From: Verrucomicrobiia bacterium
GTDB taxonomy: Bacteria; Verrucomicrobiota; Verrucomicrobiia; Limisphaerales; UBA1319
Assembly (NCBI GenBank): GCA_963664225.1
Contig: OY760937.1
Coordinates: forward strand, 3,136,001 to 3,200,000
Length of the DNA: 64,000 nucleotides
Reading direction: 5' to 3'
Numbering within the stretch: the first letter of the stretch is position 1; each line of letters opens with the position of its first letter. A program made the position numbers and the translations under genes. The notes beneath the pieces were generated by a model, which saw only the letters and a list, made by a program, of their open reading frames with translations, was not told where the DNA came from and searched no databases. Positions 29,582 to 48,391 of this stretch are shown one piece after another.

Positions 29582-32500
29582 TTATGGCACCAAAGGCGCC
29601 AAAACGATTCGATAGAACCCTTGATCGACCGGTTTATCGATGAGAACCCGCTTTTGGGTCGTGGTGGCGGTAACGTTGGTTTCGGTCTGCCAGACGCCAC
29701 CGAATGCGGTCACGCTCTGGATTTCGTATTTCCTTCCCGGCACCGTCTGGAAGAAGAGGGGGTGTTGATCCGAGCCTATGGCGGATTTGTCCTCGTCCGC
29801 GAGGTCGTTGGGGCGAGCCACGCTTTCAAAGGCGAGTTTCGAATTCGGATTGGTCGGATCGGTGCCGGCCTGCATCTCGGCCAGATTGCGCATGCCGTCC
29901 TGATCCGCATCGTCGGTTTCGGCGCTGGCGTCAGGAAACTTGTCCAGCAACCCCACCGTCTGCGCCCATTGCTGATACGTGGGCTGCTCAACCCACAACG
30001 CCGTCGGGCGACCGGCAAATGTGGAGCCCCAGCCGGTGGTGCCCGCGCGGTAATACACCGTTACATTGGTGGCTAAAGAAAACAGATACTTGGGTACGGG
30101 TGTCGGAGCGTTCCCCTGAAAATAAACTCCTGTCAGGCGTGTGGCTTTAAAGAATGCATCATCTCCAAGGCTGGTGACGCTGCCCGGGACTGTAACATTC
30201 GTCACCCCCCAGCAGCTATCGAACGCGCTAATGCCAATTGCGCTGACCGTGCCGGGAATCACATAGTCACCCATCCTGCCTGCCGGACATTGAATGAGGG
30301 TTGACTGGCTTTTGTCGAACAGTATGCCATCGTTGCTGGAATAGTTCGTATTCTGGGTGTCCACTTCAATGGCTGTCAGTTTGGTGCAGCCAACGAAAGC
30401 TTTTTCATCGATGCTGGAGACCCCGGTTGAAATCGTGAGATTCGTCAGCGCGGTGCAGTCTGCAAACGCATAGGTGCCAATTTTCATGACACTGTTCGGT
30501 ATCTCGACGCTGGTCAGGTTGCTGCAAGATGCGAAGGCGGAACCCAATATATTGGTAACACCGCTGCCCATTACCAAGCTGGTCAGATTGCGGCACATGA
30601 AAAACGCGCTGTCTCCGATGCTATGGACACCATTGGGTATTATGATGCCGGTCAGGACTCCGCAGTTCATGAACGCGGTCCCCCCTATGGCCACCACTTG
30701 CTTGCCCCCAATGGCATCCGGGATGGTCACGCTGCCACCCGGACCGATGTATTTGGTGATGGTGGCCGACGTGGCGTTGGTCGTGTAGGTAAAGTCGGAA
30801 ATTGGGGATTGTTCGACCCATAGGGCAGTCGGGCGGCCTGCATATTTCGTTCCCCAGCCCGTCGTTCCAGAGCGGTAATAGATCGTTGCCAAATCAGCAT
30901 CTAGAAATGGGGAATACGCCATGATCACATTAGGAGCGTTTCCCTCAAAATAAACTCCTGTCAGATTCGAGCAGGCCTCAAACGCGTAGCTTTCGATTTT
31001 GCCAACACTGGCCGGAATCGTGATACTCGTCAGCCCAACGCATCCATGGAAGGCGGAATCCATTATAACGTTGGCCCGATTGGGAATAATGATACTTGTA
31101 AGGCCCGTACAATTATAAAACGCATTACTGCTGATGGTGGTAATGGTTTGAGGAATCGAGATATTTGTCAGGCCGGAACAATCGGAGAATGCATAGCCAC
31201 CGAGCTTGTTGACTTCGTTCGTAATACTGTAGCTGCCAGTCTTGCCTGCCGGGCAAGCGATCAGTGTTGTCTGGTTTTTGTTGAACAAGACTCCATCGAG
31301 CGTGCTAAAAATGGAGTTCGTAGGGACTGAAAACCCGGTCAGACCGGCGCAGCCCGCGAAGGCGGATTCCCGAATGGCGGTGACGGTCAAGGGAATCATA
31401 TAACTACCAGTTTTTCCGCCTGGAAATTGCAGGAGTGTGGACTGGCTCTTATTGAACAGCACGCCGTCGAGGCTGGAATAGTTTGTGTTGGCTGGGGCCA
31501 CTGTAATGTTTGTCAGGCTGCTGCAACGTGCGAAAACATTCGCCCCGTAACTGCTCAAAAAACTGATTACAGCACTCCCTGGAATTACGATATTAGTCAG
31601 GCTGGTGCAGCGATAAAATGCAGATTGATCGATAAAGGTGACACTGTCGGGGAGGTTGATGTGTGCCAGTTTCGTACAGCCATAAAATGCCGACGGCCCG
31701 ATGTTGGTAATCCCTTCAGGCAAGGTGACGCCTGTCAGTTCAAGGCAGTCTCTGACGGCTGCGTTGTCGATGGACTTGACAGTGGCCGGAACCACGTATT
31801 CGCCCTCTTTGCCTGGTGGGTAGGCAAGCAGGATCGATTGATTATTGGTGAATAAGACTCCATCAATGCTCGAATAGGCTGGATTGAGAGTATCCACCGA
31901 GATCGTCGTGAGGTTGTTGCAGCCACCGAATATTGAGTATCCAATCTGGACCACGCTGGATGGGAGCGCGATGTTCGTCAAACTGGTGCAGTAAAGAAAC
32001 GCGGTCTTTCCGATATTTGTGACGCTATTTGGGATGTTAACACCCGTCAGGTTTGAGCAGTTTCGAAATGTGTCATATCCAATGCTTGTCACGCTATCCG
32101 GGAGCGTGATGTTGCCAAGGCCGCTGCAATCAGAGAACATCGAATCCATGATGTTTGTGATCCCGTTGGAAAGCGTGACATTCGTCAGCCCATAGCAATA
32201 ACCAAACGCGCCTGATCCAAGACTCGTGACGCTGTTGGGGATTACGACCTCCGTCAAACGCCCGCAATCGAAAAACACATACGCACCAATGTTGGTAACG
32301 CTATTGGGAATCGTGATCCCTGTCAGATTGGTACAATTTCTAAACGCGTTATTCCCGATAATCGTCACTGGTTTACCTCCAATCGCATCCGGGATGGTCA
32401 CGTTGCCGCCGGGGCCGGTGTATCCGGTGATGGTGGCGGAAACGTCGTTGGTGGTGTAGGTGAAATCGGTAATTGGGGATTGTTCGACCCACAACGCGGT

Positions 32501-35344
32501 CGGGCGTCCCGCATATTTCGTTCCCCAGCCGGTGGTGCCCGCGCGGTAATAGACGGTGACGTTGGGGGCGGTATCAAACAGACCCTGTGCGACGTTTGTC
32601 GGCGCATTGCCGTTAAAGTAAACCCCTGTCAGACGGGTGCAGCCATAGAACGCAAACCCATCGATCAGGGTGGCGCTGTTGGAGATCGTGACACTCGTCA
32701 AATTGGAACAACCCGCAAAGGCCCCGCCAATTATGTTGGTCACGCTTCCAGGGATGATGACGCTTGTCAGATTGGTGCGGTCGGCGAACGCCAAATCTCC
32801 AATGGCCGCGACCGGGAGTCCGAGAATTGTAAGTGGGATGGTCAAGGCACCCCCGGAACCTACGTAGCCGGTGATCGTGGTGGTGGTTGCATTTTGCTTA
32901 AAGGCGAAACCACGAACACCAGGATCAGAAATTGGCGCGGTAGGCACGCCGCCATAGCTGGAGCCCCAGCCGGTGATTCCCGCGTTGTAATATACCGTTT
33001 TTTCCCTGATATTAATATTCAAATAGTTTGGAGGCCCTGGAAACCTGGGCGGATTCCCTTCAAAATAAAGGTCCGTCAGGTTCGAGCAACCACTGAAGGA
33101 ATTGCCATCCAGCCAGAGGACACTATTGGGGAGTTTAATGCTGCTCAAACTGGTGCAACTGCCGAACGCATACTTATCCAGCTTCGTGACGCTTGAGGGT
33201 ATTGCTACATTCGTTAATGAAGCACAGCCGGAGAATGCCCCCTGCCCAATGGTTGTGATTCCGTAGGGGATGGCAAGATCGGCCAGGCGTGAACAGTTGG
33301 CGAATACATTGCTTTGGAGCGTTGTTACATGGCCTGAAATCAGCACGTTGGTCAGATTGGTGCAACCGTAAAACGACGTGGTTCCGAGTGCCGTGACGCT
33401 TCCCGGCATTTTAACGCTTTCCAATCTGGTGGAACCGAGAAATGCTGATCCCCAGATTTGCGCGACGCTGTCCGGGATTATGTAATTGGCTGTGTTGGCC
33501 GCTGGAAATTGATAGAGGACAGTCTGGTCCTTATTAAACAGAACGCCATCGATGCTGCTGTAGGCTGTGTTAAGAGGATCCACTGAAATGGTGATTAAAC
33601 TCGAACATCCACTGAACGTATTAATGCCGAGGTTGATAACGCTGGCCGGAATGTCAACATTCGTCAGGCTGGAGCAGTCGGCAAACATGGAAAAGCCGAG
33701 GTTCCGGATGCCATTGGGAATGGAGACACTCAGCAAGCTGGAGCACCCGACAAACTCATACGAGCCAATGTTCGTAACGCTATTGGGGATGTAAATATTC
33801 GTCAGACCCGCGCACCCGGCAAAGGCTCCGTTCATAATAGCGGAAATACCGTCGGGTATCGAATAATCTCCAGCCACGCCAAGCGGGTACTGAACCAAGT
33901 TCTGGCTCTTGTCGAACAATACGCCGTCCTTGCTGAAGTAAACGGGATTTGAATTATCCACGGTGATAGACATCAGATCGGTGCATTTATAGAACACATA
34001 ACCGTCAATGTTCGTGACGCTGGCTGGGATATTTAAATAGGTCAGACCAGTGCAATCACTAAATGCATTACGCAAAATGCCAACAACGCCATTGGGGATC
34101 GTTGCATTGGTCAGACCCCTGCATGCTTCAAATGCAGATTCACCAATCGTGATAACGCTGGTGGGCATCGTAATCCCTGTCAGGTTCGTGGAATACCTAA
34201 ACGCCGAATTCCCTATGCTGGTCACAGGTTTGCCCTCAATGATGTCCGGGATGATCACATTGCCGCCGGGGCCGGTGTATCCGGTGATGGTGGCCGACGT
34301 GGCGTTGGTCGTGTAGGTGAAATCAGTAATAGGGGATTGCTCGACCCACAACGCGGTCGGCCTTCCTCCGTAGGTGGATCCCCAACCTTTGGCACCCGCA
34401 CGATAATACACCGTCACCTGGTCAGACCCCAAAAACACACTGCTATTATAGGACAAGGGATATGAATTGCCTTCGAAATAAACCGCCTGCAAAGCGGCAC
34501 AGTGTGAGAACGCAGAATCTCCGATCTTGATGACGCTTTTAGGAATGGTGAGGCGCGTCAGATTGGCACAACCCGAGAAGGCAGCAGTTAGAATATTTGT
34601 AACGCTCGAGGAAATCGTTACGTTCGTGAGACTGGCGCAACCGTAGAAAGATGAACTGTTGAGGATGGTGACGCCTTCTGGAACTGTAAAGTTGCCAGCC
34701 TTGCCCGCCGGACAACAAATGAGCAAAGTGTGGCTCTTGTTGAACAATACACCATCAACACTGGAATAGGCCGTGTTGAGGGAGTCCACAGTAATTGCCG
34801 ATAGACTGGAACAGTTCATGAATGCGGTATTTCCAATGCTCGTGACGGCTTTGGGAATCGTTACATTCGTAAGGCTATTACACGAGAAAAATGCCTGCAT
34901 TCCGATATTCGTGACACCATTGGGAATTCTTACATGCGCCAGGTTGGAACAGCAAAAGAAAGCGTAATTCCCAATATAGTTCAGGCTGCCAGGCAGCGTA
35001 ACTTCCGTCAAGCCACTGCAAGAGTAAAACGCTTCAATTCCGATCACCGAAACACTGTCGGGAATTGTGACATTCGTCACACCAATACAACCAAAAAATG
35101 CCCCAGCCCCTATACTGGTGACTTTCTTGCCGAGAATGGAGTCTGGAATGATAATGTTGCCGCCTGGGCCGTTGTATTTGGTTATACCGGCGGTTGAACC
35201 ATTGGCAAAATAAGTGAAATCGCCAAAGGTGTCGGCTCGCCCCAAGGTGAGCAGGCCGGATAAAACAAGGAGGATGGGGATGGCAAGCCACTGCGTGACG
35301 GTCATGGTTTGGAGAACACTTCCGTTGCTCATCGTTTTTCTCAT
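29582..35344 (-). CDS. BspA-type leucine-rich repeat (LRR_5) surface protein, paralogue B
   Basis: Same architecture as paralogue A with more modules; near-identical N- and C-termini. Confidence 0.92.
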   Translation of the reverse strand: MRKTMSNGSVLQTMTVTQWLAIPILLVLSGLLTLGRADTFGDFTYFANGSTAGITKYNGPGGNIIIPDSILGKKVTSIGAGAFFGCIGVTNVTIPDSVSVIGIEAFYSCSGLTEVTLPGSLNYIGNYAFFCCSNLAHVRIPNGVTNIGMQAFFSCNSLTNVTIPKAVTSIGNTAFMNCSSLSAITVDSLNTAYSSVDGVLFNKSHTLLICCPAGKAGNFTVPEGVTILNSSSFYGCASLTNVTISSSVTNILTAAFSGCANLTRLTIPKSVIKIGDSAFSHCAALQAVYFEGNSYPLSYNSSVFLGSDQVTVYYRAGAKGWGSTYGGRPTALWVEQSPITDFTYTTNATSATITGYTGPGGNVIIPDIIEGKPVTSIGNSAFRYSTNLTGITMPTSVITIGESAFEACRGLTNATIPNGVVGILRNAFSDCTGLTYLNIPASVTNIDGYVFYKCTDLMSITVDNSNPVYFSKDGVLFDKSQNLVQYPLGVAGDYSIPDGISAIMNGAFAGCAGLTNIYIPNSVTNIGSYEFVGCSSLLSVSIPNGIRNLGFSMFADCSSLTNVDIPASVINLGINTFSGCSSLITISVDPLNTAYSSIDGVLFNKDQTVLYQFPAANTANYIIPDSVAQIWGSAFLGSTRLESVKMPGSVTALGTTSFYGCTNLTNVLISGHVTTLQSNVFANCSRLADLAIPYGITTIGQGAFSGCASLTNVAIPSSVTKLDKYAFGSCTSLSSIKLPNSVLWLDGNSFSGCSNLTDLYFEGNPPRFPGPPNYLNINIREKTVYYNAGITGWGSSYGGVPTAPISDPGVRGFAFKQNATTTTITGYVGSGGALTIPLTILGLPVAAIGDLAFADRTNLTSVIIPGSVTNIIGGAFAGCSNLTSVTISNSATLIDGFAFYGCTRLTGVYFNGNAPTNVAQGLFDTAPNVTVYYRAGTTGWGTKYAGRPTALWVEQSPITDFTYTTNDVSATITGYTGPGGNVTIPDAIGGKPVTIIGNNAFRNCTNLTGITIPNSVTNIGAYVFFDCGRLTEVVIPNSVTSLGSGAFGYCYGLTNVTLSNGITNIMDSMFSDCSGLGNITLPDSVTSIGYDTFRNCSNLTGVNIPNSVTNIGKTAFLYCTSLTNIALPSSVVQIGYSIFGGCNNLTTISVDTLNPAYSSIDGVLFTNNQSILLAYPPGKEGEYVVPATVKSIDNAAVRDCLELTGVTLPEGITNIGPSAFYGCTKLAHINLPDSVTFIDQSAFYRCTSLTNIVIPGSAVISFLSSYGANVFARCSSLTNITVAPANTNYSSLDGVLFNKSQSTLLQFPGGKTGSYMIPLTVTAIRESAFAGCAGLTGFSVPTNSIFSTLDGVLFNKNQTTLIACPAGKTGSYSITNEVNKLGGYAFSDCSGLTNISIPQTITTISSNAFYNCTGLTSIIIPNRANVIMDSAFHGCVGLTSITIPASVGKIESYAFEACSNLTGVYFEGNAPNVIMAYSPFLDADLATIYYRSGTTGWGTKYAGRPTALWVEQSPISDFTYTTNATSATITKYIGPGGSVTIPDAIGGKQVVAIGGTAFMNCGVLTGIIIPNGVHSIGDSAFFMCRNLTSLVMGSGVTNILGSAFASCSNLTSVEIPNSVMKIGTYAFADCTALTNLTISTGVSSIDEKAFVGCTKLTAIEVDTQNTNYSSNDGILFDKSQSTLIQCPAGRMGDYVIPGTVSAIGISAFDSCWGVTNVTVPGSVTSLGDDAFFKATRLTGVYFQGNAPTPVPKYLFSLATNVTVYYRAGTTGWGSTFAGRPTALWVEQPTYQQWAQTVGLLDKFPDASAETDDADQDGMRNLAEMQAGTDPTNPNSKLAFESVARPNDLADEDKSAIGSDQHPLFFQTVPGRKYEIQSVTAFGGVWQTETNVTATTTQKRVLIDKPVDQGFYRIVLAPLVP

Positions 35345-36078
35345 GCAAGCGTTGTATCACGCAATGAGACGCTTGCAATAACTGTTTTGCCCTGCCTGAG
35401 GTGCAGGAAAAAATTCTTCGGCAAGCGAGAAAGTCCTTATGAAGGGCATGTGAGTCTATACGAAACAAATATAGCAAGAGTTTCGGGATTGGCCGGGCGC
35501 CGATTGAGGGTCCGGCAAAAGTCAGATCTGAAAGGACGACCGCCCTCATGGAATGACGACCGCCCTCCCCATGAACCCAAAGTGGGGTGTCTTTCGTTAC
35601 AAGTTACATGGAAAGAAGTGGGTGAAGAAACATCAACATGGATAGGCAGGATGAGCAGGATATTTGACCACTGATATCACGGACGAGAAAGGAAATGGAT
35701 AATTGAGAATTTTAAAAAAAGACAAACATCCAATGGATGGGGATAGGCAGGGGAAAATCCGCAGATGAAACTGAGAAACGCAGATTAGGAGAACGAGAAG
35801 AGGGTGGATTTTGAAACCGCGAATGAACGTCAATAATTGGGGATCGGGAAAAAGGAATTGAACCACGAAATATGCGAAATGGAAAAAAGGATTGACGCAC
35901 GCCCTCATCCCGACCTTCTCCCCCAGGAGAAGGAGTAGTGTTGCGAGCCCTGGATTTATTGAACGGTTTGGAGGATGCCGCCGCGTGGGGTTGGTATAGG
36001 AGGAAAATATTAGTTGGTATGGAAAAAAGGATTGACGCACGCCCTCATCCCGACCTTCTCCCCCAGGAGCAACGGTAT

Positions 36079-36987
36079 TTAATTTGAGAGTGCAAAATCT
36101 GCGTTTTTGAGGATTTGGTTCATCAGGACAATGAGTTTGCGCATGACGGCGGTGAGCGCGACTTTGGCGGGCTTGCCCGCCAATCGGAGTCGTTCGTAGA
36201 ACTCCTTGAGTTGGCGATTGCAGCGCGCAGCCACCAGGGCGGCCATGTAGAGGGCACGTCTAACGGCGGCTCTTCCGCCACCGATGGAGCGGCGGCCTTG
36301 CCACTGGCCGCTTTCTCGAGGATGTGGAGCCAGTCCGGCCAAGGCGGCGGCCTGCCCCCGATTGAGCGTGCCCAACTCGGGCAGCTCAGCCAAAACCCCC
36401 AAGGCGGTAATCGCGCCCACCCCGGTGATGGCTTCGAGTTTTTTTGCGCGTTCATCCAGTTCTGTGGTTTTCTGGCGCAGCGCTTTGAGTTGGGTCTCGA
36501 TATGCTCCAGATCCCGTTCCAATCGACGCAGCAGGCTCTGGGCCTGGCGGCGCAACTTGGGCAGCGTGAGGCGTTCGATCTGATGGCGCTGGCTAATAAG
36601 CAGATCAAGGATCTGAGTGCGGCGGCGAACCAGTTCGGTCAACTGCTCCTCCACCTCGGAACGCGCGGGCGTGGGTTTGGGGGCGAAGGCCTGCCCATAG
36701 GCGGAGAGGACGGCGGCATCTATACGGTCGGTTTTGGCCCGTTGTCCCTGGGCGCGGGCGGGATTGATGATGCTGACAGGAATGCTGGCATGATGGAGGG
36801 CGTCAGCCACCTCACGCTCGTAGCCGCCGGTGGCTTCACAGATGACGTGAGCGCCGGGATGCTGCGCCAGGAGTTTGACGAGCTGGCGATGACCGGCGGC
36901 GGTATTGGGCAGATGGTGGGAACGACCGGCCAGTTGGAGATCAAGACTCAGCTTGGCAATATCCAAACCAGCGTAGATAGTGGTCAT
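36079..36987 (-). CDS. IS110 DEDD recombinase/transposase
   Basis: AGLDIAK, CEATGGYE, KTDRIDA, GVGAITA, GLAPHPRESG and ALYMAA motifs; alternative start at 37002. Confidence 0.93.
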   Translation of the reverse strand: MTTIYAGLDIAKLSLDLQLAGRSHHLPNTAAGHRQLVKLLAQHPGAHVICEATGGYEREVADALHHASIPVSIINPARAQGQRAKTDRIDAAVLSAYGQAFAPKPTPARSEVEEQLTELVRRRTQILDLLISQRHQIERLTLPKLRRQAQSLLRRLERDLEHIETQLKALRQKTTELDERAKKLEAITGVGAITALGVLAELPELGTLNRGQAAALAGLAPHPRESGQWQGRRSIGGGRAAVRRALYMAALVAARCNRQLKEFYERLRLAGKPAKVALTAVMRKLIVLMNQILKNADFALSN

Positions 36988-36988
36988 A

Positions 36989-37170
36989 GTGTTCTGGCTC
37001 ATTCTTGTAAATACGAGCAGGCCTTGGTGGGCCGCTCAAGCAACGGTTCGAGTTTAGGACACAGGCACGAACGGCTCTGGCTCCTCGCGCATTTGGTTAA
37101 AAACCAATGCAAGAAGGAAACGAGCTCGTCCGCGCCACTGTCCTGCCGCCTGCAGGCGGCAGGACAGTTC
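36989..37170 (-). ncRNA. Predicted bridge RNA of IS110 no.1
   Basis: 5' hairpin, target-binding loop and donor-binding loop with guide segments matching the element's own junctions (see findings). Confidence 0.8.
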
Positions 37171-37624
37171 CATCTATTCCGTCTTTTCAAACAAAACAAG
37201 AATAGATGGAAAATCAGATACAAGAAGGAGGAGTATTGGGAGATGTCGGTGTGTTTGGATGGTTTGGGAGGTGCCGCCGCGTGGGTTTGGTATAGGAGGA
37301 AAATATCAGTTGGTATGGAAAAAAGGAATGACGCACGCCATCATCACGGCTAAGCGCTGGCATCCCTGCCAGGATGCTTGAAGGGAATTGTTTGAATGGG
37401 AGAAGGGAAGAATGTGGGTTTTACGAATTAGAGCAGGCCATCGGATTATCGAGAGGGCTAGAAATATTCAAGCTTCCCTCCATTTGAATGGTGCGCCGTC
37501 TAAAGACGGGACTCCATACCCCGGAACGCCGCGCGCCGAGAATGACGTCACCCATGGCATTACACTTTTGGCTGCAGGATCGTTGGTTTCCAGACCAGGG
37601 GATTAGAGTGGGTTTGAGACGGTG

Positions 37625-37670
37625 AGCGGATTGGAAATCCGCGATACGGCAGGTTTGAAACCTGCGCTAC
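37625..37670. repeat. REP-like double hairpin
   Basis: GCGGATTGGAAATCCGC and GCAGGTTTGAAACCTGCGCTAC (GTAG end on the minus strand). Confidence 0.7.
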
Positions 37671-37816
37671 GGGTTGCGGTGTGGACGCGCGGGGGATTGA
37701 TTAAGTGTATGGCATGCCGTTGCGCTTTTTGGCCGAAAAGGTTCGTTAAACAGGTTCCAACAAAAAAGGGGCTGCCGTTGTGGTGGCAGCCCCATGCGTC
37801 ATGTTTCAGAAGAGGA

Positions 37817-43299: not shown

Positions 43300-43570
43300 A
43301 ATCATCCGTTGGCGAGGAGAGCCCCGGGAAGCTCCCCGTAGCCAACGGTGAATAACTGTGCCGCCGCCAAAAAATCGAGCGGTGAAAAACTTTTGTCGCC
43401 GGGGTATAATGCTTCTGGCGGCATCGCCCCGGATGGATCACGGTCATACACCCCTTGTCTTAAGAAGACTGAGGAGAGTTTACCGGCCCGTCCGACGGCG
43501 CCTGTCAAAAAGTCTGAGAGAACTATTGCCCGCGAGGCTTCCTGTATCAGGTTGACTGACGACAGCGCTC
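43300..43570 (+). ncRNA. Predicted bridge RNA of IS110 no.2
   Basis: 5' hairpin (CCGTTGGC/GCCAACGG), then two internal loops with junction-matching guides. Confidence 0.78.
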
Positions 43571-43593
43571 CGATGCCCCGTAACGGAGGATCT

Positions 43594-44844
43594 ATGAAAT
43601 CATGGTTGGAGATATCCTGTTTTGCCGGATTGGATTGGGCCCGGGATCATCACGATGTGGTCATCGTCGATCGAGAGGGCAAGATCGTGGAACAGTTCCG
43701 CTTCGAGCATTCCCAGGAAGGCTGGGAGCAATGGCGGAAAAAGACGGCGCCCTTCGCCCCTTTGGCGGTGGCCATTGAGACGAGCTTCGGCACGGCTGTG
43801 GACCAGCTCCTGAGGGGGGAGGCAACGGTCTATCCGGTCAATCCCAAGAGCGCCCAGCGGTATCGGGATCGCAAGGTGCCCAGCGGCAGCAAGACCGATT
43901 TTCTGGATGCCTGGTCTCTGGCCGATGCCTTGCGGATCGACGGGCACGGTTGGAAAGCGCTGGTCCCAACGGACGCGCTGACCAGCCAGTTGCAGATGCT
44001 CTGCCGGGATGAGGTTCATCTCATCGGTCAGCGCACGCTGTTCGTAAATCAATTGCAACAAGCTCTCTTGGAATACTATCCGGCGGCCCTGGAGGCCTTT
44101 GAGGATTGGACCATGGCCTCGGCGTGGGATTTCATCATTGAGTTTCCAACGCCTCGTGCGCTGGTCAAAGCCGGCAAGCGACGGTGGGAAAAGTTCCTGC
44201 ACGTTCATAAGCTCTGGCGGCCGGAAACCGCTGAAAAACGGATGGGCATTTTTGCACGGGCCGATCAGTTTTGCGGCTCGGCGGCCCTGACGGCGGCCAA
44301 GGGCACCCTGGCGGTGAGCCTGGCCAAAATGTTACGCACGTTGCAGCAGCAACTGGATGTTTATCACGCGCAAATCCAGGCCTTGTTTGCACAGCACCCC
44401 GACCATGACTTGTTCGGTTCGCTGCCCGGAGCGGGCTCGTTTTTGGCTCCACGGCTGCTGGGAGAAATCGGCGGCGGGTCGGGCCGGTTTGAAAGCGCAC
44501 AGCATCTGCAGGGCATTGCGGGCACGGCTCCTGTGAGTTATCAATCGGGACAAATCGACAAGGTCCGCATCCGCCACCACTGCGACAAGTTCCTCCGCCA
44601 TGCCGTGCATCTGTGGAGCGATTGCAGTCGCAAGAAATGTCTTTGGGCACAGGTTTACTACCAGAAAAAACGGGAAGAGGGCAAAAGCCATGCCTGCGCC
44701 TTGCGATGTCTGGGCCAGCGGTGGCTCAAAATCATCTGGAAAATGCTCCAAACCCACGCGCCCTACGATCCGGAAATACATGCCAAAAACCAGCAGCTGC
44801 ATGGTTCGTGGGTGCTGAGTCTGCAGACCAAAACCGCCAGGTAA
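43594..44844 (+). CDS. IS110 DEDD recombinase/transposase (long type)
   Basis: FAGLDWA, AIETS, KTDFLDA, SLPGAG and GTAPVSYQSG motifs; RBS GGAGGA before ATG 43594. Confidence 0.93.
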   Translation: MKSWLEISCFAGLDWARDHHDVVIVDREGKIVEQFRFEHSQEGWEQWRKKTAPFAPLAVAIETSFGTAVDQLLRGEATVYPVNPKSAQRYRDRKVPSGSKTDFLDAWSLADALRIDGHGWKALVPTDALTSQLQMLCRDEVHLIGQRTLFVNQLQQALLEYYPAALEAFEDWTMASAWDFIIEFPTPRALVKAGKRRWEKFLHVHKLWRPETAEKRMGIFARADQFCGSAALTAAKGTLAVSLAKMLRTLQQQLDVYHAQIQALFAQHPDHDLFGSLPGAGSFLAPRLLGEIGGGSGRFESAQHLQGIAGTAPVSYQSGQIDKVRIRHHCDKFLRHAVHLWSDCSRKKCLWAQVYYQKKREEGKSHACALRCLGQRWLKIIWKMLQTHAPYDPEIHAKNQQLHGSWVLSLQTKTAR

Positions 44845-48070: not shown

Positions 48071-48391
48071 GGGTGCATCACAATATTCTTCGGCAAGCGA
48101 AAAAGTCCTTAAAAAGGGCATGCGAGTATATACGAAACAAATATAGCAAGAGTTTCGGGAATGGCCGGGCGCCGATCGAGGGTCCGGCAAAAGTCAGATA
48201 TGAAAGGACGACCGCCCTCATCCCGGCCTTCTCCCCCAGGAGAAGGAGGAGTATTGCGAGCCCTGGGTTTATTGCACGGTTTGGAGGATGCCACCGCGCC
48301 GGACTACATGCCCCACACCGCCGACTGGCGTCCTGGCTGGGTTCATACGGTTTAGGCTTTTTACCAGCTTCCTGAATTTTGTCGTGCGTAC
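48071..48391. mobile_element. 321-bp MITE-like cassette with internal REP
   Basis: TIRs GGGTGCATCACAATATTC / GAATTTTGTCGTGCGTAC; 9-bp direct repeat ATTTGTGAC at 48062-70 and 48392-400. Body similar to 35399-35549 and 35901-35985. Confidence 0.85.

Follow-up and report, generated by a model that had tools for sequence, protein, structure and literature searches.

Does an insertion sequence (IS) of the IS110 group in a Verrucomicrobium choose its sites through an RNA encoded in its own left end, in the manner of IS621 of Escherichia coli, which comprises a recombinase and a 177-nucleotide (nt) bridge RNA (PMC11208160; PMC11208158)? The question is raised by positions 36068-37224 (minus strand) of the window analysed here, a 64,000-nt stretch of contig OY760937.1 (assembly GCA_963664225.1, forward-strand positions 3,136,001 to 3,200,000), in which an earlier note, made from the letters alone, had read such an RNA. 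Here and below, published systems are described from those parts of the cited papers that deal with the features compared.

The element is one of five IS110-group copies in this genome, and it very probably moves as IS621 does; its sequence appears to show all the features that define a bridge element of the IS621 type at that level. The reading is carried by its anatomy, the matches of its guides, an RNA structure that covaries among relatives, target guides that covary with the flanks, and conserved catalytic residues. The element adds an anatomically complete bridge-RNA element from Verrucomicrobia with a compact recombinase (308 amino acids, aa), leaves the known mechanism unchanged and represents a new, well-documented example of an established system rather than a kind of its own. 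An RNA of this kind was to be expected, since bridge RNAs are predicted in 85.7% of catalogued IS110 elements (PMC11208160); our literature search found no paper linking IS110, bridge RNA and Verrucomicrobia.

Ends of the element, its predicted RNA and its target repeat

The host genome is a single contig of 5.78 Mb, in which the five copies have identical ends and different flanks. The window copy measures 1157 bp and full-length copies elsewhere in the genome 1175 bp; all five begin and end with a CT core dinucleotide, long terminal inverted repeats are absent, and a non-coding left end of 237 nt stands against a right end reaching only 11 nt past the stop codon. The target CCTCCTT-CT-CCTGG and the circle junction ACCGTTG-CT-TGTAT, both reconstructed on the minus strand in the earlier note, were recovered letter by letter, with CT at 37224-37223 followed by TGTAT, and ACCGTTG-CT at 36076-36068 followed by the flank CCTGG. 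Every coordinate given there for a part of the RNA likewise held on the position ruler of that strand.

Published bridge RNAs run from a 5' stem-loop through a target loop to a donor loop, each loop consisting of guide, stem-loop and guide (PMC11208160, PMC11208158). In the left end (Table 1), the perfect hairpin, the left target guide motif TCCTTCT, the inner hairpin, AGGAG of the right target guide and a closing stem are present as claimed, the last joining 37136-37122 to 37077-37064 by 14 pairs with one bulged A. The left donor guide, ACCGTTGCT, is identical to the right end at 9/9 positions, as had been proposed. TACAAG at 37004-37009, previously taken as the right donor guide, is also present; it is better read as the longer, 9-nt AUUUACAAG (37012-37004), in which all seven bases of CTTGTAT are paired. 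Against its own site the window copy scores 7/9 with its left and 6/7 with its right target guide. The four guide motifs together were found in 0/200,000 shuffles of the 236-nt left end (product of single-motif frequencies 1.6e-7), and folding was far more stable than in shuffled sequences (z = -9.66 over 239 nt, -6.78 over 176 nt; 0/200 shuffles as good). When 35500-37700 was compared with Rfam at E up to 10, 14 matches resulted, none near its gathering score and none a transposon RNA; these hits, which included microRNA models on the palindrome and a togavirus frameshift hairpin at 35532-35567, were dismissed as chance level.

The recombinase is placed from its second ATG, because the first is missing in two of the five copies. 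Both of its domains were detected above their cut-offs (PF01548, 2.8e-15; PF02371, 1.4e-19), and residues 5-301 of the protein from an intact copy align with the recombinases of ISCro4 (9t56, 5.6e-39) and IS621 (8wt6, 7.6e-39). The five catalytic residues of IS621, D11, E60, D102, D105 and S241 (PMC11208158), have aligned D, E, D, D and S counterparts in the intact copy, all of which are kept in the window copy.

The sequence that the target loop matches is repeated in the host: the genome contains CCTTCTCCTGGGGGAGAAGG 30 times, where 2e-5 would be expected, and TCCTTCTCCTGG 35 times, 29 of these with the exact hairpin CCTTCTCC-TGGG-GGAGAAGG. This hairpin sits in a dispersed repeat conserved over ~90-100 bp and numbering about 30 copies per genome. 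Insertion took place in the 5' arm of the hairpin, two of the five copies (c1 and c3 below) interrupt members of the family, and a further empty member stands in the window at 48236-48247. The suggestion that the element targets a repetitive extragenic palindrome (REP) therefore stands as far as a palindrome-bearing dispersed repeat is concerned; at ~100 bp, the repeat is not a classical enterobacterial REP. Members (consensus ...CAATACTCCTCCTTCTCCTGGGGGAGAAGGCCGGGATGAGGGCG...) were seen in the window at 35905-36060, 37225-37400 and 48236-48247, some of them in tandem around the IS.

In the cycle proposed here, the element would leave as a circle whose joined ends form the donor site ACCGTTG-CT-TGTAT, and its left end would yield an RNA of roughly 180-200 nt with a 5' stem-loop, a target-binding loop and a donor-binding loop. 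The donor loop would pair with both strands of the joined ends; the target loop would do the same with TCCTT-CT-CCT, located in the 5' arm of the repeat hairpin, whereupon a tetramer of the DEDD/serine recombinase would exchange strands just past the CT core. Transcription, RNA binding, circle formation and chemistry are modelled here on the IS621 literature, and by the same analogy recombination would be RNA-dependent and programmable.

Guides and sites among copies and relatives

The window copy (c1, with an 18-bp deletion) and copy c3 (L003; G000:C1:1738417-1739591, with a nonsense codon) both occupy CCTCCTT-CT-CCTGG. The remaining three, located elsewhere, are intact with open frames of 308 aa and occupy TTCCTTC-CT-CCTCC (c2), GAGTTCC-CT-CCCTG (c4) and CAGCTCC-CT-CCCCG (c5); an intact recombinase is encoded by the copy at G000:C1:1793953-1795127. 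Apart from the deletion, a single base separates c1 from c2; between c4 and c5 there are 0/1175 differences, and both are 92% identical to c1. Two guide variants result: variant 1 (c1-c3) has the target guides UUUCCUUCU and CGAGGAG, variant 2 (c4, c5) has CCAUUCCCU and UCGGGAG, and the donor guides do not vary among the five copies. Of 235 left-end positions, 19 distinguish the two variants, and 10 of these fall within the 16 target-guide bases (Fisher p = 5e-9), and the sites shift along with the guides, from TCCTT-CT-CCT (variant 1) to TTCC-CT-CCC (variant 2; the c5 flank reads CTCC-CT-CCC). The earlier note had named other copies at unrelated targets as a finding that would refute its reading; the outcome favoured that reading, the guides of the two copies at different targets being different to match. 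Copy c3 is a mosaic, with a 36-bp patch in which 7/7 differences from c2 equal variant 2, which points to conversion between copies.

Because substitutions pile up in the target loop, the two variants can tentatively be read as natural retargeting, in which natural bridge systems would explore new targets through short core-centred matches and guide drift would be a main evolutionary route; we regard this as possible, though somewhat doubtful. Its basis is that variant 2 has no perfect genomic site and yet is present as two identical copies at matches of 8-9 contiguous bases, so that on this reading variant 2 would have transposed recently. If it is correct, such systems would evolve largely by guide drift rather than by the acquisition of new elements. 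Half-match recombination (bioRxiv 10.64898/2026.08.31.748434) was considered for the c2, c4 and c5 sites and set aside, their flanks being by eye unlike the donor.

A second IS in the same genome (five near-identical copies, L006-L010, ~70% DNA identity; e.g. the 1199-bp copy at G000:C1:3487116-3488314) has ends as in the window element, CT-TGTATG ... CACCGTTG-CT. The flanks opposite its left guide, UUCCAAUCU, read TTCCAAC-CT, TTCCAGT-CT or ATCCTGT-CT (8/9 in four copies), and its right guide, the complement of CTGCCGTA, faces CT-GCCGTA (8/8 in three copies). The genome thus offers a natural experiment in which each of the two guide variants, and likewise the second, related IS, reads a target of its own; two of the three read a host repeat. 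The repeat read by the second IS, TTCCAA(C/T)-CT-GCCGTA, is itself apparently a hairpin-bearing dispersed repeat.

Relatives were taken from nine loci in named Verrucomicrobia assemblies and from matches in 45/401 genomes of the class (E up to 1e-40, host included). A covariance model built from ten elements located the RNA ahead of the recombinase gene at 23/26 further loci (L034-L059), the three misses being one locus cut before its left end and two others; on the host genome it returned exactly the ten expected places and six weak reverse-strand hits on the palindrome. In an alignment of 10 sequences (A1), 96.5% of the paired cells held pairs, compared with 87.6% after shuffling and 32-41% with partners slid, and 20/48 pairs showed compensatory changes; with 27 sequences (A3) the figures were 93.3%, 66.8%, 37-41% and 44/48, and in either alignment 0/500 shuffles reached as high. 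The compensatory pairs of A3 include the donor-loop stems, which are invariant among close relatives.

For the 27 elements, boundaries were placed using the donor side alone (CTTGT... upstream; the left-donor heptamer and CT downstream), which left 3 without a right boundary (contig end) and 11 without a left (7 with none found, 4 not starting CTTGT). The right target guide agreed with its own flank at 100/120 non-core positions in 24 elements, 11 of them at 5/5 (cognate mean 4.17/5, non-cognate 1.70), and the left guide at 68/112 non-core positions in 16 elements (cognate 4.25/7, non-cognate 2.30); 0/20,000 permutations reached either value. The low left-guide scores of L056, L036 and L050 look like one-base errors of alignment register. 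The first handshake position is complementary in 23/24 elements between target loop and donor position 7, and in 12/16 between donor loop and target position 7; among these are elements in which both partners have changed. On the donor side, the 9/9 left guide is special to the window element, its relatives keeping only the first 6-7 bases, ACCGTT(G); the right guide in most relatives is AUUUGCAAG, which places a G opposite T.

Points against an IS621-like mode and rival explanations

A number of observations weigh against the view that the element moves as IS621 does, and several concern the quality of the matches. The c2 site agrees with its guides at only 6/9 (left) and 6/7 (right), the matches of c4 and c5 extend over no more than 9 and 8 contiguous bases, and the genome lacks the ideal 12-mer for the variant-2 guides. 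Among the relatives, L026 has a truly poor left-guide match (5/9, two of these being the CT core), and the left donor guide is unpaired with the core (ACCGTTGAT, with GTT or ACC in place of the window element's ACCGTTGCT). The elements compared are kin, so that the permutation counts overstate their independence, and A3 was fitted to the covariance model, which favours structure.

Further points concern damage to the recombinase. The window copy has lost VRHFAR through an 18-bp in-frame deletion between 8-bp direct repeats (CGCCCGCG) at ~36754-36761. The spacing from NP to K(T/S)D, found by pattern search, is 14 residues in 12/12 other distinct sequences and 8 in the window copy; IS621 and ISCro4 align across this segment free of gaps, and the lost residues lie between the equivalent of IS621 N84, a residue that contacts DNA (PMC11208158), and the third catalytic residue. 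With six residues gone from a length-invariant segment, the enzyme of the window copy is probably impaired, its RNA region and ends being intact, and for the same reason the copy is probably mobilised, if at all, by the enzyme of an intact copy. Copy c3 has TAG at codon 270, so that c1 and c3 are both damaged.

Damage of this kind could mean that the family is a fossil in the host genome, having the architecture of a bridge-RNA system and no copy that still moves; two of the three variant-1 copies are damaged, c3 carries the converted patch, and about 30 perfect targets stand unoccupied. We consider this very unlikely, given that the loci of c4 and c5 hold identical copies of 1175 bp, that the frames of c2, c4 and c5 are open, and that c1 is one base from c2 besides its deletion. 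Moreover, a peat metagenome run (X4) contained a 1120-nt contig over 36065-37166 with 5 other letters and with the 18 missing bases present (at 36754), so that a near-identical intact form also exists outside the host genome. The same recombinase was seen in other collections (P0005, P0007, P0008) on contigs that, at 1024-1187 nt, are roughly as long as the element; such contigs, including those of 1180-1187 nt, could be circles or collapsed repeats.

The remaining points against IS621-like movement concern expression, excision and folding. Four public runs were available, as assembled contigs only, which show presence and not absence. Metatranscriptome run X20 held two contigs, 36065-36165 and 36376-36711, the second of which appears to come from a relative since it has 32 other letters; no X20 contig lay on the left end, only parts of a relative's recombinase gene. 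No joint at the exact element ends, as a circle junction or a precise empty site would give, was found in the four runs. In the peat run, the loose ends seen at 36069 and 37223, examined as an excised locus, belong to other repeat-family members, and joints from 35994 to 37233 and from 36050 to 37254, examined as precise excision, are of low depth and lie within repeated flanks. For the integrated state, no sigma-70-like promoter was found on the element strand, and in the joined ends no promoter match of 8/12 or better spans the junction. The best junction candidate, TTGCTT-17-TATTCT, is weak at 7/12 and takes its TTG from the right end; TAnnnT at a spacer of 16-18 recurs in 9/14 related elements, many of them close kin. 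This candidate would start the RNA ~20-30 nt ahead of the palindromic stem-loop, and it is a possibility that the left donor supplies the -35 TTG of a circle promoter (GTTG/CT+T), which would tie expression of the RNA directly to the recombination site. A scan for an intrinsic terminator found none.

As to folding, the stability of the structure proposed in the earlier note is borne out, whereas the target loop is partly shut by guide-to-guide pairing: in the single-sequence minimum-energy fold, six bases of the left guide pair with six of the right (UUCCUU with GAGGAG). Because the guides pair in this fold, an open target loop is predicted only for the family consensus or after the protein has bound. 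Some complementarity between the guides is built in, as both target guides contain the core, and it is extended by the pyrimidine-rich, near-palindromic target.

These observations leave room for the left end to be only a leader that controls expression, as an attenuator or antisense target, or a set of DNA-level recombinase-binding repeats, with the target matches incidental. The donor guides repeat the element's own ends, one directly and one in inverted orientation, a pattern expected of subterminal repeats; the RNA region adjoins the start codon, and no transcript of it was seen in the contig-only runs. Such an explanation is nonetheless highly improbable: the target lies outside the element, yet the loop bases track it, with the 10 of 19 variant differences in the 16 guide bases and the sites changing to match; in neither the 24 nor the 16 elements did a permutation reach the observed guide-flank match; and covariation of the stems shows selection to act on RNA pairing, not on DNA sequence.

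Comparison with known systems

The reading as an IS621-type element receives further support from a point-by-point comparison. The two share the DEDD RuvC-like and Tnp domains with the five catalytic residues, the CT core, the long left and short right ends and insertion into a palindromic repeat. RNA order and CT core agree with the published description (PMC11208160, PMC11208158), as claimed, and in both systems the left guides copy the top strand and the right guides complement it, core included. In IS621 the left target, right target and left donor guides measure 9, 4 and 8 nt, the right donor guide is split into A157-U158 and C162-G165, two U being flipped out and G161 standing opposite dT12, handshake bases lie just 3' of each right guide, and the stems contain a flipped-out A (PMC11208158). 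The window element similarly has a 9-nt right donor guide that omits two bases, a bulged A in both stems (outer and inner) of its target loop, and a handshake beside each right guide. Its right donor, CTTGTAT, is according to the earlier note also contained in the IS621 donor, which agrees with the published base names (dC8, dT9, dT10, dG11, dT12, dA13, dT14; PMC11208158).

Differences from IS621 are found in the protein, which is distant (E ~1e-39) and has 308 aa against 326 aa, in the left donor, which ends in TG here and in AT in IS621, and in the target-loop segments, of 11 nt on each side against 13 and 15. Target guides match at 7/9 (left) and 5-6/7 (right), compared with 4 on the right in IS621. 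The target itself is TCCTT-CT-CCT here and ATCAGGCCTAC in IS621; with the alignment of residues 5-301 at E ~1e-39, this upholds the description of the element as an IS621 orthologue with a different target. The host is a Verrucomicrobium, and a clear upstream -35 box was not found in the right end, where IS621 has its -35 box further upstream (PMC11208160); the candidate junction promoter, if real, would differ from IS621 in this placement. With a donor side near-identical to that of IS621 and a different target, the element can help in selecting orthologues to be used in recombination assays, and it illustrates how far from their guides natural sites may stray.

The IS110 elements ISPpu9 (PMC12288879) and ISPpu10 (bioRxiv 10.64898/2026.03.19.712850) of Pseudomonas putida, which target REP sequences and were compared by description only, are likewise multicopy elements in palindromic intergenic repeats, in another phylum and another repeat family. 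ISCro4 (PDB 9t56) was the best structural-database hit over residues 5-301 and has the same domain order; it differs in host and target, the comparison covering the protein. Its recombinase is presumably that of the IS622 system engineered for human cells.

Members of the IS1111 group belong to the same recombinase family and combine a CT-like core with RNA-guided target choice, the RNA (seekRNA) being encoded in the right end and the ends bearing subterminal inverted repeats of 7-17 bp (PMC11208160). That the window element is such a member, with a left-end structure that plays no part in targeting, deserves almost no credence, since its right end, 11 nt past the stop codon, has no room for an RNA, inverted repeats of that kind were not observed at its ends, and its long left end carries all four guides.

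Table 1. Positions of the element's parts, its recombinase gene and the adjoining target repeat in the window
Feature	Positions	Strand	Basis or remark
Left CT core dinucleotide	37223..37224	-	Sequence and comparison of five copies
Right donor CTTGTAT (core and first five left-end bases)	37218..37224	-	Sequence
First hairpin, CCATCTATTC ... GGAATAGATGG	37170..37209	-	Fold; candidate -10 TATTCT (37199-37204) in its 5' arm
5' stem-loop, 30-nt perfect palindrome	37138..37167	-	Fold; 14/14 pairs compensatory in A3
Target-loop outer stem, 5' strand	37122..37136	-	Fold, alignments; bulged A at 37126
Left target guide UUUCCUUCU	37112..37120	-	Last seven bases (TCCTTCT, 37118-37112) equal top strand of left target and core
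Target-loop inner stem-loop	37089..37110	-	Fold, alignments; bulged A in 3' strand
Right target guide CGAGGAG (AGGAG at 37085-37081)	37081..37087	-	Complement of CTCCTCG; target CTCCTGG, 6/7
Target-loop handshake dinucleotide CC	37079..37080	-	First C complementary to donor position 7 (G)
Target-loop outer stem, 3' strand	37064..37077	-	Fold, alignments
Left donor guide ACCGUUGCU (ACCGTTGCT)	37039..37047	-	9/9 identical to right end and core
Donor-loop inner stem-loop, one bulged base	37014..37038	-	Fold; 6/8 pairs compensatory in A3
Right donor guide AUUUACAAG, 9 nt	37004..37012	-	Pairs discontiguously with CTTGTAT, UU left out
Donor-loop handshake dinucleotide AA	37002..37003	-	Complementary to target positions 7 and 6 (TT)
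Recombinase gene, 302 aa from second ATG, DEDD RuvC-like and Tnp domains	36079..36987	-	Domain search, alignment
Left donor ACCGTTG and core CT	36068..36076	-	Directly 3' of stop codon 36079-36081
Right CT core dinucleotide	36068..36069	-	Sequence and comparison of five copies
Left part of interrupted repeat (left target CCTCCTT at 37225-37231)	37225..37271	-	Copy comparison, repeat alignment
Right part of interrupted repeat (right target CCTGG at 36063-36067, then rest of hairpin)	36029..36067	-	Copy comparison, repeat alignment
Unoccupied target TCCTTCTCCTGG in neighbouring repeat member	35923..35934	-	Sequence, repeat alignment

The window contains a third, different IS110-family recombinase gene at 43348-44844 (plus strand; 498-aa frame, PF01548 at 43624-44082), with 4 copies in the genome. 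The RNA model of the window element gave no match to this gene, which may rely on a guide RNA of another type or else be a member of the IS1111 group. An open frame of 1920 aa, with many repeats of leucine-rich type and a signal-like start, lies at 29582-35344 (minus strand), immediately downstream of the repeat cluster.

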